IMG/VR virus record: IMGVR_UViG_3300027282_000090
Span: 1-36,975 of that record
Strand: one strand, 5' to 3'
DNA: 36,975 bases
DNA from: a virus
Taxonomy: Duplodnaviria > Caudoviricetes
Below the pieces are notes generated by a model, which saw only the letters and a list, made by a program, of their open reading frames with translations, made no database searches and had not been told where the DNA came from. This document shows, piece after piece, positions 20,274-36,975 of this stretch (position 1 is the stretch's first letter; each line of letters begins with the position of its first letter). A program made the position numbers and the translations under genes.

Positions 20274-21791
20274 CTATTGAGTTTTGGCAGAGTCGATGAC
20301 GATCTGTTCCTCGACCTTTTGCAGGGTTCCTGACTGGGTAGTCTGGGATGGATAGCAGTCGTAGATCAGGCCTCGTTCAGCGGCCTTTTTCTGTTCGGCC
20401 TGGTTCTGCCTGTCTACCCGATCAATATTGCCGCCGCGTTTGGCGATCTTCTGGCCTCGTGTTTCGATGCCGTTTCTGATATCCATCAGTTCTGCCACCC
20501 GGTCCTTGACCGGATCAGTGAAGTCCCAGCCGTCGAGATGCCAGTCGACCCGGTGAAAGAGTCGCGGGTTTTTCAGGTAGTGGGAAACAGAAATGGTTTT
20601 TGTCGCACCGTTAAGGACTGCCGTCTTGATCCACCGGTTGATGTAGGGGCGGCAGTACTGGAAGACGAGGGTCCTGGCGATGATGGTTTCGCAGAGTCGG
20701 CGGAACTCGATGAGGCCGGCCCGGAGTGAGGTGTAAGTGACCCCAGCCAGGTCGCCGGTGAGCTGCTCATAAGTGATGCCGAGGCCGCGGGCGATGATCC
20801 GGAACTGCAGCTTCATGAAGTCGAGGTAATTGTTGCCGACATCGGCGGTCTCTGTGAACGCCACCTTCTGGCCGTTGCGCAGGACAGGGAAGGTGCCAGG
20901 TTCCAGCCGCATCGACTGGACGCCGTTCTCACGTGATAGAGGCTTGCCGCCCATCGTCCGGTCGGTGATCGGATTGTCCGAATAGATGAACCCGCCCCAG
21001 AGGGCAGACGCTTTTTTGCGGACCACTTCCGCATCGTCGTAGACATCGATCTCATGCAGCTTGACGATGATCGGGGCCAGCCAGCTTACGCCGCGGGCTT
21101 GTCCGGCGCGAAGCGGTCTGAAGACATGGGCGATATCGCTTGCGTCGACCGCGATCCGGCTGAGGTCGGAAGAGGTGAGAAATGTTTCTCCGGGATGGTC
21201 GGCATACAGCCAGTACTTGTAACGCCGGCCTTTCCGCCATTCGATCCCGAAGCGGATCTCGTTGCCTTCCGGGCTGATGTCATTATATCCGGCATCAAGG
21301 TGGTCTGATTCCAGGAGTTGCACCTGCAGGGGGACAATCAGGCCGAAATCTGGATCCACATCGTGAAACCGGCCGAGTACTTCACCGTCCCGGACCACGG
21401 AACGGCAGGCGATTTCCTGGGTACCATAGAAATCGGAGATCCCGTAGAAGTCCGCCTCGAGCTGGCTGTCGTCCCAGAGCTGCTGGAGTTCGTCCTTCTG
21501 ATCCTGGTTGTCTAGGTTCCAGCTGGGTGAGATGTCGGTTCCGACCAGGTTGGCGACAAAGGAATCAATGCCGCCTTTAGCGGTGGGATTGTTCCGTTCG
21601 AAATCCCGGCTTCTTTTGCGCAGGGCGGTGAGGTTCCGGAAAGCGGCAGCGTTCGGTCCGGCCGAAGAAAGTCCCCAGTCTCCAATACGATCGGCGGTCG
21701 ATGCTCCTTCGTACAGCGGCGAAGCGGCAAGCCCGGCCGAGGGAAGAGGTAAGCCGGTTCGGTCAAGGATGGTGCCGGGAGGAAAGTTCAT
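20274..21791 (-). CDS. Portal protein, lambda family
   Basis: YEGA, LRKRSRD..RNNP.A, DGEV, PLQVQLLESDHL, RAGQARGVSWLAP, YEQLTGDL..V.Y.S.RAGL.EF. Confidence 0.95.
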   Translation of the reverse strand: MNFPPGTILDRTGLPLPSAGLAASPLYEGASTADRIGDWGLSSAGPNAAAFRNLTALRKRSRDFERNNPTAKGGIDSFVANLVGTDISPSWNLDNQDQKDELQQLWDDSQLEADFYGISDFYGTQEIACRSVVRDGEVLGRFHDVDPDFGLIVPLQVQLLESDHLDAGYNDISPEGNEIRFGIEWRKGRRYKYWLYADHPGETFLTSSDLSRIAVDASDIAHVFRPLRAGQARGVSWLAPIIVKLHEIDVYDDAEVVRKKASALWGGFIYSDNPITDRTMGGKPLSRENGVQSMRLEPGTFPVLRNGQKVAFTETADVGNNYLDFMKLQFRIIARGLGITYEQLTGDLAGVTYTSLRAGLIEFRRLCETIIARTLVFQYCRPYINRWIKTAVLNGATKTISVSHYLKNPRLFHRVDWHLDGWDFTDPVKDRVAELMDIRNGIETRGQKIAKRGGNIDRVDRQNQAEQKKAAERGLIYDCYPSQTTQSGTLQKVEEQIVIDSAKTQ

Positions 21792-22018
21792 AATCCCTTG
21801 CCTCCATGAATCCTGAAGGCAAAGATGACATTAGAGGCTGGATCCGCGGCGGAGAGTTCGGCGGCGATCTCGTTGCGCAAGGCACGGAGCTGAGGCAGCT
21901 CGATCGGCGAATATTGGACAACGTTGCCGTCGATGACAAATTTAACCGGCCGCTTGTTGGTGGCGAGCTCAATGATTGCTTGTTCTATGTTGGTAAGATC
22001 GGCCTGGGTGAATGCCAC
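21788..22018 (-). CDS. Head completion protein (gpW-like)
   Basis: FTQADL..IEQAI...DGNVVQYS...L..LR; true start probably the GTG at 22018, 5 nt after GGAGG. Confidence 0.85.
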   Translation of the reverse strand: MAFTQADLTNIEQAIIELATNKRPVKFVIDGNVVQYSPIELPQLRALRNEIAAELSAADPASNVIFAFRIHGGKGL

Positions 22019-22028
22019 TGGTGCCTCC

Positions 22029-22114
22029 GTCATGAAAAACAGAATTATTTTTCATGACTGTACACCCTGTTTTTGGGGATTTTCTTCTATGATCACGTAT
22101 GACCTTCTATGACC
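22029..22114 (-). promoter_or_regulatory. Candidate activator-dependent late promoter for the head/tail/lysis operon
   Basis: Three tandem 10-bp repeats (22085-22114); -10-like TACAGT at 22062-22057 with no good -35; perfect 11-bp inverted repeat at 22029-22058. Confidence 0.55.
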
Positions 22115-22144
22115 GTCCAAGTGGTGTTTTAATGCTTGACAGGG

Positions 22145-22169
22145 GTTTCGTTTGAGGTGGAAACGAAAC
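22145..22169. repeat. Perfect 9-bp inverted repeat at the left edge of the AT-rich insert
   Basis: GTTTCGTTT-gaggtgg-AAACGAAAC. Confidence 0.6.
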
Positions 22170-22211
22170 TGGGTAGCGATTTAAAATCCTGAAAGCGCGG
22201 ATTCTAGTTTA

Positions 22212-22240
22212 TTGACAATGGTGCATATGATTGTTAGATA
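22212..22240 (+). promoter_or_regulatory. Sigma70-like promoter for the accessory gene
   Basis: TTGACA (22212-22217), 17-bp spacer ending in TGn, TAGATA (22235-22240). Confidence 0.5.
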
Positions 22241-22440
22241 TTAAGAATATGTACAAGAAATACATTATAAATAATCACTCTGGACTGTCTTTGATTTATT
22301 TCTATAGAAATTATTTAACCATTTGAAAATTCAGATATTTTAATAATCAGACGAGCGCAATATCAAGGATTTCATAAGCTCTTTTCTCCTTTTCATAAAT
22401 TATCTCCCTTAGGTAATATAGGAAATCGGAGGTGTTACAA

Positions 22441-25308
22441 ATGGGTAAATCTTGGACTGAAACAGAAAAGAGAGTGTGGAGTTGCCTGACTATCGGAGAA
22501 ATAGCTGATCTTCAACCTGGAAGCATCGTCAGGGCTAGCTTCATCAAGCAGTTATGTACTGAGCCGAACCTGATCTCCAACCTTCAACCACATGGGATTC
22601 GCGTTCGCGGTAGCAACATCGAAGGTAGTCTAGATTTAAGGTTACTCAACATCCCCTTCAACCTTTCTCTCACCCAATGTTCAATTCCTGATACGCTTGA
22701 TCTTCGACATGCTGCTATTAAAGCATTGGATTTATCAGGATCAAAGACAGACAGTATAGACGCTGACGGTTTAACAGTTTTTGGTAATTTTCGGCTGGCT
22801 GATGAATTCTCAGCGGCTGGATCTGTCTGCCTCATGGGAGCAAAAATTGAAGGAGATCTCATTTGCACCAGAGGGTGCTTCGATAATCAGAATAACCAAA
22901 AGTTTGACACACAGAAAACCAATTGTGGGGGATCTAATACCACAACCAGTTGTGGAGACTGCAGAAAAAGCACTTTACACAGCTACTCTCTAGTTCTTGA
23001 GAGAGTTTACATTAAGGGCAGTGTCTATCTCTGCGACGGTTTCTCCGCTTTTGGCGGAGTGCATCTCGGAGATAGCACCATCAATGGTAATCTTAACTGT
23101 ACAAATGGCAAATTTATTAAAAGAAGTGGTTGTCAAAAGGAGCTATCGAATGGTCGACGTCTCACCTGTTATTCGGAAGCAGAATTCCATGATGCCTGTG
23201 CTTTCAACGGGGAAGGGATGCATGTTAAAAGGAACATGATATTGAACGATATTAATGTCGAGGGTGAGATTCGCTTGACAGGTGCGCTTATTGAAGGAGA
23301 CTTGGATTCTGCTGGAGGGAAGTATAAAAACAAGGGAGCCAACGCGATCTATGGCGACCGGATGCACGTCAAAGGCAATGCTTTTTTCTGTGACAGATTC
23401 GAGGCCGAAGGAATTATACGATTCCCGTGTGCCAGAATTGGTGCAGATATCAGTTTTTATAATGGAATGATGAATGGCTCAGATGATAATGTCCCTGTTC
23501 TCTACTGTGAAGGCATAAAGGTTCAAGGGACATTTTATCTTAAAAAATTTGAGACTAGAAAAGGTTACATCAACCTTTCACACGCCACTATTAGTGGAAA
23601 CCTTGATTGCACAAACAGCAAATTCCTGAATGAGGGTGTCTTTGCCATCAATGCTAAAGGCATGAGTATAAGTGGGTCAGTTTTCCTGCGTAGCTTTAAA
23701 GAAAAAAATCTCGAAGATTTCGACAGGAATATATTCCTTGCCAATGCCTTCGTTTGTCTCACTGGGTCAAAATTAGGTATGGATCTTGTTTGCACTGGAG
23801 GACATTTCAAGTTAGGAAAACCTTGCACTCTTGAAAACCCATACTTTGATTCTATTCAAGCGGGCAACATGTCTATAGGTGGTAAAGTAGAAATGGATGA
23901 GATCGAGACAGAGGGGGGTGTCAGAATCAGTGATACTCGAATAGGAAGTTACCTTAATTGCAACCAAAGCAAAATCAGTACCCCCACACATGAAGGAGAT
24001 CATGTCTATGCGTTCACTGGAGGGAAATTGCATGTCGGTGGGAGTCTTTATCTCGGTGATGGATTTACTGCCAAGGGTGAAGTTATGCTCAATGATGCAT
24101 CAATCGGTCGAAACATTTATCTAAATTCAGGAACTATTAAAAACGAAGGAGATTTCTCCCTGAGAGCAATGCAAATGCAGGTTGCAGGTAGCATTATTTT
24201 TAAGAACTTGATATCGCATGGCGAGATCAAAATTGATTTTTCTGTAATTGGAGGAAATCTTGATTGTTCAGGAGGTGAGTTTTTGAACGATAAATCTAAG
24301 ACGGAGAGACGAAAAAAAAGAGATTCTCCAGATGAAGAATTAGAACGTCATTATGCTTTTCGGGCGATTGGGCTAAAGACGGAGGGAAGTGTTTGGTTTA
24401 AGGATTTTAAAGTTGATGGTGCAGTTTCCTTTCAAGGGGCTGTTATAGGAAGAAATTTTTATTGGAAAGGTGTCAAAGATTCGCAAAAAGTTTCACTTTT
24501 CCTTGATGCGGCAAAAGTCGAGGTCTTGGTTGACGATATTGATAGTTGGCCTAAACAGAATAACCTCCAAATTAACGATTTTGAGTACCAGTTCATAAGA
24601 GATCAAGGCCCAGAAGAATTAGAAAAACGTAGAGAGAAATGGTTGTCTTTATCTAAGGATTTCCGGACACAGCCTTACGAGCAACTCGCCAAAGTGCTCA
24701 AGCGGAGTGGTCACTTAGAGGAGGCTAAATTGGTTCTTATAAAAAAACATAATCATCAGAGTGGTAACAACTCGATGAACTTCATAATGAAAAAAGTAGG
24801 TCCAAAATTAAGAAAGAAGCTAGCTTGGTGGCACAATTTTCTCGTTGGATATGGATACAAACCTTTTCGGGCAGCTGTGATTGGATTGTTTATTGTTTTG
24901 TTTGGTTCTTTCATATTTTACTCTGGATTCCACTTTGATCTTATGGTGCCAAGTGAGTATAAAGGAGGGTATCAGGTAGCTAACCTATCGGAACCAGAGC
25001 AAGTTCAAACAGTTCAGGTGGCGAACTTCTTGGGCAGGAAATGTAAACCTAACAGAAGAATTACAGACACATCAGGTTTCTACTATTTTTTTTATTCTTT
25101 AGATACTTTTTTACCCATTGTCGATTTTCAGACAGCTGCTTACTGGTTGCCAACCGCTTATCCACAGGTTGAAAATGGAGATGAATGCAGTGGAAAGTTT
25201 AGTTTGTGGGGCTGGATATTGTGCGTTTTCCGCTGGTTTGTCATTATCTGCGGTTGGATTGTCACATCCGTTTTTATAACTGCTTTGAGTGGTGTTGTTC
25301 GCAAGTAA
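22441..25308 (+). CDS. Accessory (moron) membrane protein with ~10 beta-solenoid-like repeats and a C-terminal two-TM channel-like module
   Basis: GGAGGT followed after 7 nt by the ATG at 22441; repeat pattern (L/I)xxxxhxVxGxhxL..F...G.V.L..A.I.G.L.C..G.F.N; PYEQLA.VL...G..EEA; GYGY.P-TM1, YSLDTFLPIVDF, TM2; AT-rich and opposite to phage transcription. Confidence 0.85.
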   Translation: MGKSWTETEKRVWSCLTIGEIADLQPGSIVRASFIKQLCTEPNLISNLQPHGIRVRGSNIEGSLDLRLLNIPFNLSLTQCSIPDTLDLRHAAIKALDLSGSKTDSIDADGLTVFGNFRLADEFSAAGSVCLMGAKIEGDLICTRGCFDNQNNQKFDTQKTNCGGSNTTTSCGDCRKSTLHSYSLVLERVYIKGSVYLCDGFSAFGGVHLGDSTINGNLNCTNGKFIKRSGCQKELSNGRRLTCYSEAEFHDACAFNGEGMHVKRNMILNDINVEGEIRLTGALIEGDLDSAGGKYKNKGANAIYGDRMHVKGNAFFCDRFEAEGIIRFPCARIGADISFYNGMMNGSDDNVPVLYCEGIKVQGTFYLKKFETRKGYINLSHATISGNLDCTNSKFLNEGVFAINAKGMSISGSVFLRSFKEKNLEDFDRNIFLANAFVCLTGSKLGMDLVCTGGHFKLGKPCTLENPYFDSIQAGNMSIGGKVEMDEIETEGGVRISDTRIGSYLNCNQSKISTPTHEGDHVYAFTGGKLHVGGSLYLGDGFTAKGEVMLNDASIGRNIYLNSGTIKNEGDFSLRAMQMQVAGSIIFKNLISHGEIKIDFSVIGGNLDCSGGEFLNDKSKTERRKKRDSPDEELERHYAFRAIGLKTEGSVWFKDFKVDGAVSFQGAVIGRNFYWKGVKDSQKVSLFLDAAKVEVLVDDIDSWPKQNNLQINDFEYQFIRDQGPEELEKRREKWLSLSKDFRTQPYEQLAKVLKRSGHLEEAKLVLIKKHNHQSGNNSMNFIMKKVGPKLRKKLAWWHNFLVGYGYKPFRAAVIGLFIVLFGSFIFYSGFHFDLMVPSEYKGGYQVANLSEPEQVQTVQVANFLGRKCKPNRRITDTSGFYYFFYSLDTFLPIVDFQTAAYWLPTAYPQVENGDECSGKFSLWGWILCVFRWFVIICGWIVTSVFITALSGVVRK

Positions 25309-25508
25309 TGAAAGATCGAATGTCGACCACACAGCCCCCAGAGGACTTGCTGGTGCCATTTTGCTTTTCCATTTATGATAAATGTCATTTTCTCTGCATT
25401 TTCCTTTCAGTCTCTTTGGTAAATCCGTCACTTCCAACTCTTGAGACATGAAAACCTCACCGCGAGGGAGTTCATCCAAATAATGATAGGGGCTGGTGAT
25501 AATCAGGC

Positions 25509-25709
25509 CTAAATCGTGAGCATAGTCATCGTCTCAATCCGGCGCCGCTGCCAGTTGTCGACCAAATCCGTGTTTGATTCCCACCGGCCGTCGACCTTGG
25601 TTGCCGGGAAGTTGTCATCCTCGACCCATTTCAGGATGGTGTTCTTGCTCCGGCCGGAATAGGCGGCTATTTCTTCCAGAGTCACGAGTATTTTTCCGCT
25701 TTGTTTCAT
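25509..25709 (-). CDS. Small winged-HTH DNA-binding protein (AlpA/Xis-like); candidate late activator
   Basis: LEEIAAY.GRSKNTILKW...NFPA.K.DGRW; GGAGG ribosome-binding site; directly after terL. Confidence 0.75.
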   Translation of the reverse strand: MKQSGKILVTLEEIAAYSGRSKNTILKWVEDDNFPATKVDGRWESNTDLVDNWQRRRIETMTMLTI

Positions 25710-36153: not shown

Positions 36154-36975
36154 ATGATCAAGTGTTTTCTTTCTCATAGTAGTGAGGATAAGGGATTATA
36201 TGTAGAGATAGTAGCATCCAAGCTTGAAAAAGAAAGCATCATTTATGACACAAAATCTTTTGAAGAAGGAATGCCACCTCTTGATGAAATTCTTAGAGGT
36301 TTAAACCAAACAGGAATATTTGTTTTATTTCTTTCTGACAGCTCATTAAACAAAGAATGGGTTAAGCGTGAAATCATAGAAGCGAAAAAGTTACATGAAA
36401 ATGGGAAAATTAAGCAGATATATCCAATAATAATTGATAAATCAATTGATTACAAAGATCCTAGGATTCCTGATTGGCTGAGAGACTCATATAATCTAAA
36501 GCAAATATTGAGACCAACTGTTGCTGCTCGAAGAATTAAACAGCGAATGCGGGAATTAAGTTGGGATTTTCATCCTAGACTTAAAGAGCGGGAAGATATT
36601 TTTGTTGGAAGAAATGAATTAATTTCATCCTTTGAATTACGAATAGATGATTTCGCAAAAAAGAAACCTAATTGTATTATTGCTTCGGGTATAGAAGGTG
36701 TCGGGCGGAAAGCATTCCTTAAGAGAGCTTTCAAAAAAAGTAATATTATTAACCCTTCTTATGAATTTCCCTCAATCTTTCTTAGTCAACATGAAAGTAT
36801 TGAGGATTTTTTGATAAAAATCTATGATTTTGGATTTTCTATAGATTTAGATTTAACTAGTGCCTGGCAGAAAACCCACAATTTTCAAAAACTCCTACCA
36901 CCGCAGACACCTTTAATGTGTAAGGTTTATTCTCCGGCAGCTAATTTTGAATTTTATAGGCTTCCAAAACAATAA
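36154..36975 (+). CDS. TIR-domain protein with the start of a STAND-like P-loop NTPase; probably 3'-truncated; candidate anti-phage gene
   Basis: CFLSHSS.DK, FVLFLS..SL...WVKRE (catalytic-type Glu); then FVGR.E and SGIEGVGRK; GGAGG ribosome-binding site; AT-rich. Confidence 0.85.
   Translation: MIKCFLSHSSEDKGLYVEIVASKLEKESIIYDTKSFEEGMPPLDEILRGLNQTGIFVLFLSDSSLNKEWVKREIIEAKKLHENGKIKQIYPIIIDKSIDYKDPRIPDWLRDSYNLKQILRPTVAARRIKQRMRELSWDFHPRLKEREDIFVGRNELISSFELRIDDFAKKKPNCIIASGIEGVGRKAFLKRAFKKSNIINPSYEFPSIFLSQHESIEDFLIKIYDFGFSIDLDLTSAWQKTHNFQKLLPPQTPLMCKVYSPAANFEFYRLPKQ
36857..36975. mobile_element. Possible insertion-sequence end or other junction interrupting the TIR-NTPase gene
   Basis: CTAG (36857-36860) followed by TGCCTGGCAGAAAACCC; base composition shifts and the translation stops looking like an NTPase domain. 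Confidence 0.35.

Follow-up and report, generated by a model that had tools for sequence, protein, structure and literature searches.

The locus studied here raises the question of what a lone, AT-rich gene contributes to the prophage that carries it. The whole stretch analyzed (the window) comprises the 36,975 nucleotides (nt) of the IMG/VR virus record IMGVR_UViG_3300027282_000090 (Caudoviricetes), in which integrase, tail, capsid, portal, terminase, primase, and CI genes of a lambda-like prophage were identified. The gene in question encodes a protein of 955 amino acids (aa) which, judging from structural models, very probably has the architecture of a pore-loop channel and belongs to a family, not described before, that resembles HalA, the effector of the anti-phage system Hailong.

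The guanine-plus-cytosine (GC) content across positions 22140–25500 is 40.5%, compared with 55.8 and 55.6% in the two flanks. DNA similarity to sister prophages ends at ∼22143–22174 and is picked up again at ∼25549; the insert thus measures ∼3.3 kb. It contains one long open reading frame (ORF), oriented opposite to the head genes, and its right edge is formed by a helix-turn-helix (HTH) gene that follows terL. An earlier interpretation of the letters (the sequence-only reading) had already described an insert of this size, composition, and orientation between the HTH gene and gpW. The ORF could start with a GTG at 22432 or an ATG at 22441; because a GGAGGT motif precedes the ATG by 7 nt but overlaps the GTG, the ATG is the likely start.

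The AlphaFold (AF2) model of the protein (predicted local distance difference test, pLDDT, 89; predicted template modeling score, pTM, 0.81) places a β-helix up to about residue 720, followed by a helical linker, a first transmembrane helix (TM1; 808–831), a pore helix (881–890), and a second transmembrane helix (TM2; 922–950). Hydropathy analysis likewise yielded two hydrophobic segments (windows starting at ∼806–818 and 918–936), but no hydrophobic stretch within the first 45 aa. As no signal peptide is evident, and as seven lysine or arginine residues precede TM1, the solenoid and the C-terminus are predicted to be cytoplasmic. Ten repeat anchors lie between residues 136 and 669, spaced 48–78 aa apart. 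The solenoid of about ten ∼50-aa repeats, the linker, the pore module with its two transmembrane helices, and the missing signal peptide, all of which the sequence-only reading had proposed, were thus recovered.

When the C-terminal part of the model was compared with known structures using VIA, all 50 matches listed were either cation-channel chains or HalA. NaK was matched with a Z score of 8.7 and a root-mean-square deviation (rmsd) of 2.2 Å over 80 residues, and NaK-type pores in general with 1.9–2.2 Å over 77–80 residues, in keeping with the two-transmembrane channel that had been suspected. HalA (9NYI; Z 8.7, rmsd 5.1 Å over 199 residues) was the only match listed that spans residues 1–276 of this model, that is, the end of the solenoid, the linker, and the pore. 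A Foldseek search with the full-length model also returned HalA (probability 0.95, E 0.077); the search against viral models returned no match. The solenoid resembled triangular β-helices (Z up to 23.6) and pentapeptide-repeat proteins (Z 14–18) alike; the Pentapeptide_3 score was 17.4 bits (cut-off 27). No cofactor-binding catalytic domain was found in the model or among the fold matches listed, although missing from such a list is no proof of absence. Four copies of residues 706–955 modeled together scored 0.44, compared with 0.00 for the best of three controls, which narrowly exceeds a mark of 0.42. In a calibration unlike the present job, 20 of 30 solved pairs had attained this mark, as had 1 of 23 single chains. 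At least 43% of the contacts agreed between runs, pLDDT was at least 48 (about 49), and confident contacts between subunits involved TM2 and the loop 892–897, including loop–loop contacts. A pore-like oligomer with the filter loop among its contacts was therefore predicted, if by a small margin, and its resemblance to channels of solved structure may be what lifted the score.

Several positions of the pore are highly conserved. A pore-helix motif with an almost invariant terminal proline is present in 112 of 119 relatives (P892, 99%; D/E888, 98%; Y/F885, 100%), and the pore-helix residues, P892, W902, and G938-W939 are 94–99% conserved across the 119. The position of the filter is occupied by P-[LVI]-[VI]-[DKN]-[LF], which is hydrophobic and free of glycine. 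A TxGYGD filter was encountered in none of 119 and none of 84 aligned relatives, for which reason the protein is not a K+ channel, as had been anticipated; the GYGY motif was rejected as a K+ filter, as it precedes TM1 and lies outside the pore. Within the solenoid, a pair of loops with four cysteines (C171xxC174 and GRRLxC243...C253) is common to all 16 close relatives and absent from the 104 others; it is possibly a metal site. Two further cysteines, 868 and 916 (positions 25042 and 25186), predicted to lie in outside loops and shared with the two closest relatives, could form a disulfide.

The protein exceeds the cut-off of no family in Pfam, PHROG, NCBIfam, or PADLOC; for 46 of its relatives, too, NCBIfam contained no relevant match. 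A first search yielded 139 relatives, the best 120 of which comprised 15 close ones (43–58% identity) and a broad set at 22–32%. When 1.84 billion representatives of 50%-identity clusters were searched with a profile covering the linker and the membrane part, 13,153 clusters matched at E ≤ 0.001, of which 10,179 also satisfied E ≤ 1e-10. In GTDB (503 confirmed matches, best 80 examined), members occur in Planctomycetota, Verrucomicrobiota, cyanobacteria, Alphaproteobacteria, and others, and 33 plasmid records were matched as well. The number of repeats varies from ∼1 to 11. Within the same genus, none of 37 genomes carried the gene; within the class, 5 of 400 did. Four homologs (L133, L135, L139, and L171) appear split into two frames, probably through frameshifts, decay, or assembly errors. 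Some relatives are named “Membrane-associated oxidoreductase” in UniRef and “oxidoreductase” in RefSeq, including some plasmid records; the sequence-only reading had mentioned such labels and doubted them, and the models point to no structural basis for the name, which looks wrong. The literature consulted (covered in part, with few subscription papers and without the primary Hailong paper) does not describe the family as a channel or a defense system.

Hailong was reportedly described by Tan et al. in 2025. According to two reviews, HalA forms a channel of four subunits that bears a crown on its cytoplasmic side, is kept shut by oligo-dA made by the nucleotidyltransferase (NTase) HalB, and is toxic without it (PMC13434031; PMC13276650); in another paper, the copy of Hailong from Escherichia coli P4 was tested (PMC13586616). 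The second gene of the E. coli P4 locus matched the HalB of the Protein Data Bank (PDB) at E 1.1e-4, and the first gene provided an alignment of 28 HalA sequences representing one HalA subfamily only. Profile–profile comparison with this alignment, both sides trimmed, resulted in a probability of 69.5% and a score of 37.6, whereas none of 20 shuffles of the columns exceeded 18.1; the two alignments overlap in the helix of the linker, at GYGY, and in TM1. Remote kinship to HalA is thus likely, but not proven. Sequence searches of the PDB with family profiles returned no significant match and did not retrieve 9NYI, which says little because E. coli HalA itself failed to retrieve it; pentapeptide-repeat membrane proteins used as bridges (L147, L151, and L146) did not match HalA in the PDB either. 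Searches of IMG/VR with the HalA alignment and of plasmids with HalB returned nothing.

A HalB-like gene was found neither in the insert nor in the window or the genome by motif, tblastn, and PF14540 searches, which are single-sequence and motif tests of limited sensitivity (lowest E values, 0.89 with phmmer and, in the genome, 0.38 with tblastn). The NTase motif, detectable in E. coli HalB, was absent from the window and from the genes around 93 family loci, and PF14540 had no match over the cut-off in 401 genomes, a weak test because detection of a real HalB by this profile was not demonstrated. No partner family recurred around the 93 loci, and a conserved partner gene was rejected on this ground. 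One locus (L065) has a convergent neighbor with a weak Polbeta match. As HalB was not found, and as the filter differs, the protein is HalA-like in architecture yet not a member of Hailong. The single-gene sensor-pore of the sequence-only reading accordingly stands as far as architecture is concerned, but the closest known system had been missed.

The site occupied by the gene, between the HTH gene and gpW, is a defense hotspot. A search with the portal protein identified nine places, distributed over 7 of the 187 genomes of the family in addition to that of this prophage, plus one IMG/VR contig; two places, where the portal was cut by the contig start, were left out, resulting in eight loci. 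Six of these span the site and two are cut, and none contains the 955-aa gene. All six spanned sister prophages carry different cargo there (1.2–11.2 kb, with GC lower than the rest of the locus), and five of the six carry defense or toxin–antitoxin genes, the outcome of a check that the sequence-only reading had suggested. These figures derive from 27 (PADLOC) and 31 (Pfam) of 42 called ORFs, short ORFs having been left out. Unannotated ORFs at the hotspot of sister prophages (L167:9117-10520, L168:7513-9641, L166:239-1102, and L165:4243-5428) are candidates for new defense genes. The closest relative with full context (45% identity; genome G017) resides in an F-type conjugative element, beside a GmrSD-like gene split by an IS3-type insertion sequence (L016:5731-8913). 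Among three chosen plasmid matches of the 33, one lies among caspase, CU044_2847, and integrase genes and another three genes away from a DprA/ComF pair, both of which are anecdotal.

Taken as a whole, the mechanism that we favor for the prophage copy is plausible but tentative: it would be a stand-alone abortive-infection device, in which the lone cargo gene encodes a membrane channel of the pore-loop type, predicted to consist of four subunits, beneath an elongated β-solenoid in the cytoplasm. The channel would be shut at rest, unlike HalA, since no partner gene accompanies it. A phage product, nucleic acid or protein, would bind the solenoid, possibly at the basic four-cysteine loops; this would pull the linker helices and open TM2 at its conserved glycine, and the open channel would depolarize the cell and stop the infection. 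Somewhat more doubtful is the broader proposition that the family of >10,000 clusters is a branch of pore-loop channels consisting of HalA-related one-gene sensor-channels, with the prophage copy as a stand-alone anti-phage system.

A number of results weigh against this account. Foldseek returned no match at E ≤ 0.001 and the VIA score of ∼8.7 falls within the background of the tool for helical proteins, so that the evidence for a channel fold is carried by the consistency of the list of matches. The link to HalA depends on the alignment and is weak, other HalA alignments having resulted in probabilities of 8, 45, and 26%. Searches of 50,697 phage records yielded no relative, and motif-limited scans of IMG/VR none beyond this prophage itself. 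The 161 immediate neighbors at the 93 loci (genes called by a simple script; all scanned with Pfam and 141 with PADLOC) are mostly housekeeping genes, among them tRNA synthetases, recA, dnaJ, ruvB, and transporters, and two close relatives (G309 and L154) have unremarkable or cut contexts. PADLOC matches at E ≤ 1e-15 were obtained for 8 of 141 neighbors and 7 of 140 genes at least five genes away (Fisher p 1.0), about half of them generic domains in both sets; this is not a comparison against the genome background because the control stems from the same loci, and both rates are low. The enrichment of homologs in defense islands for which the sequence-only reading had proposed a check was therefore not observed in the broad family, and largely housekeeping surroundings, which it had named as speaking against defense, were. 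In four genomes (family f25; L138, L141, L143, and L150), the homolog keeps its position, with the gene of a 2-oxoacid:ferredoxin oxidoreductase subunit on one side and trp genes on the other, possibly as a domesticated subfamily. These contexts agree with a physiological channel gated by ligand or stress and serving ion, pH, metal, or redox balance, carried by the prophage as fitness cargo at a hotspot that accepts any cargo. The members are mostly alone, the synteny of f25 is kept, the GC offset between gene and locus is small (median −0.022; below −0.05 in 19 of 68), the four-cysteine loops could sense metal or redox state, and sister hotspots also carry genes without defense annotation. 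We nevertheless regard such a role as rather unlikely for the prophage copy, given the very patchy occurrence in the class of the host (5/400), a repeat number that ranges as expected of sensors under selection, and the fact that, among structural relatives that share its domain order, the nearest is a defense effector.

Whether the pore conducts at all is not assured, because the loop at the filter position is hydrophobic and glycine-free. This property, together with a solenoid that makes up three quarters of the protein and matches pentapeptide-repeat proteins, would suit a non-conducting module that anchors and tetramerizes a solenoid binding protein or DNA, for instance, to block DNA entry (superinfection exclusion) or to mimic DNA in the pentapeptide manner. 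The conservation of the pore helix, P892, W902, and G938-W939 exceeds what an anchor needs, and we consider both the scaffold and these examples improbable. A true Hailong effector, its HalB located elsewhere or lost, would share the domain order of HalA; it is very improbable, as the searches for HalB, within their limited sensitivity, and for a recurrent partner or NTase motif were negative and the filter is unlike that of all 28 HalA relatives. The least credible explanation, which we regard as extremely improbable, is the membrane-associated oxidoreductase of the UniRef and plasmid record names. It has these names in its favor, and the CxxC of the close subfamily, but of 120 relatives, 104 lack the CxxC; moreover, solenoid, linker, and pore together explain the whole of the confident model, and no supporting paper was found in the literature sampled in part.

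If the broader proposition is true, this branch of channels combines a glycine-free, proline-led filter with an expandable solenoid as the sensor. If the prophage copy protects against phage, the architecture of the Hailong effector works without a DNA-making partner, which gives a pointer to the gating of such guards. Even without a role in defense, a very large, widespread, and mislabeled family is reassigned to the pore-loop channels, with a filter sequence unlike known ones, and the site between terminase-HTH and gpW is a usable hotspot for finding defense genes in a little-studied group of phages.

The ribosome-binding site that the sequence-only reading had ascribed to the gene was recovered, but the case for a TTGACA promoter of its own is weak. 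The hexamer occurs at 22136 and 22212, the best −10 sequence at a distance of 16–18 nt matches three of six positions, and a promoter scan of the window called neither (nine sites found, compared with 7.8 ± 2.9 expected by chance). The copy at 22136 was rejected as promoter of the insert because it is part of a conserved phage element upstream of gpW, in a motif that does not vary among the seven prophage loci aligned. In these seven loci, inverted CCCTGT/ACAGGG arms enclose CATA(G/C) repeats ∼11 bp apart; the element may act as a late promoter to which the conserved HTH_17 protein binds, or it may serve in packaging. A tRNA-Leu(CAA) at G000:C70:37650-37736, ∼200 bp before the integrase, is the likely integration site. 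Beside the CI repressor, in DNA of 30% GC, a TIR protein is encoded at positions 36154–36975 (+ strand). Its match to the PADLOC TIR-NLR (E 1.8e-79) covers the initial 231 positions out of 824, and it ends at 273 aa, ∼470 nt before the contig end; this is a second defense site, possibly truncated.

Table. Features of the insert and its flanks in the window, and cargo of sister prophages at the same site.
Feature	Position	Strand	Basis or remarks
AT-rich cargo insert, one gene	22175..25505		GC, sister-prophage alignment; variable site between HTH gene and gpW
ORF, 955 aa from ATG	22441..25308	+	β-solenoid, helical linker, two-transmembrane pore-loop protein
Shine-Dalgarno GGAGGT	22428..22433	+	7 nt before ATG 22441; overlaps GTG
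Predicted parallel β-helix, ∼residues 50–719	22588..24597	+	AF2 pLDDT mostly >90; ten repeats
C171-x-x-C174, first half of four-Cys loop pair	22951..22962	+	Invariant in alignment A1
G238-RRL-x-C243...C253 and basic patch, second half of four-Cys loop pair	23152..23199	+	Alignments
Helical linker (QPYEQLA motif) and pre-TM1 amphipathic helix ending GYGY	24610..24861	+	Model; aligns weakly with HalA
TM1, residues 808–831	24862..24933	+	Hydropathy, model helix
Pore helix 881–890 and re-entrant filter-position loop P892-I-V-D-F-Q897	25081..25131	+	Model, fold matches, conservation
TM2, residues 922–950, conserved G938-W939	25204..25290	+	Hydropathy, model, alignment
gpW-like head-tail adaptor, left flank	21788..22033	-	PHROG 75
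Conserved phage element upstream of gpW	22061..22144	-	Holds first TTGACA; left edge of hotspot
HTH_17 gene, right flank	25509..25709	-	Found in 6/6 fully spanned sister prophages
L169 cargo: AbiLi and AbiLii, full pair			PADLOC/Pfam scan
L167 cargo: full-length PifA			PADLOC/Pfam scan
L163 cargo, 11 kb	L163:3440-14600		Kinase, Vsr, C5 methylase, McrBC-like pair, ParA-like protein, unknown 175-aa ORF
L164 cargo: BrnT			PADLOC/Pfam scan
L168 cargo: AAA_15/21 ATPase with partial defense matches			PADLOC/Pfam scan
L161 cargo: only DUF5131, PADLOC candidate			PADLOC/Pfam scan

Among known proteins, the hypothetical proteins called oxidoreductases are the family described here, to which the close subfamily adds the four-cysteine loops and the ten repeats. 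Proteins that combine pentapeptide repeats with Ion_trans_2 (such as L147, 323 aa) have the same domain order, but they retain a recognizable Ion_trans_2 pore and canonical pentapeptides, unlike the protein here. In one genome, the profile of the family extends into their linker region (E 1.6e-5), and one of them is a neighbor in the Atlas at 0.89, which is a lead only. The pentapeptide-repeat membrane proteins touched by the linker profile are L147:9532-10503, the one with Ion_trans_2, and L146, L148, and L151; no NTase was present among their scanned neighbors, and HalA-like architecture unaccompanied by HalB may thus be common.

With the two-transmembrane pore-loop cation channels NaK, KcsA, MthK, and Kir (Pfam Ion_trans_2), the protein has in common TM1, the pore helix, the re-entrant loop, and TM2, as well as the conserved glycine in the middle of TM2, which is the gating hinge of such channels. 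It differs in lacking TxGYG(D) and a Pfam channel match, and its gating domain would be the N-terminal solenoid in place of RCK or CNBD. HalA is similar in its cytoplasmic β-solenoid, helical linker, GYGY before TM1, two-transmembrane pore-loop module, predicted tetramer, and location on mobile elements. Hailong differs in that the 955-aa protein is encoded by a single-gene insert and HalB was not found adjacent. HalA itself is shorter (∼280–350 aa), has a short pentapeptide array where ten ∼50-aa repeats are present here, and carries the filter TTMxTLGA (28 of 28 HalA relatives of the E. coli type) in place of SLDTFLPIVD, whereas the long loop after TM1 and the four-cysteine loops are features of the protein described here.

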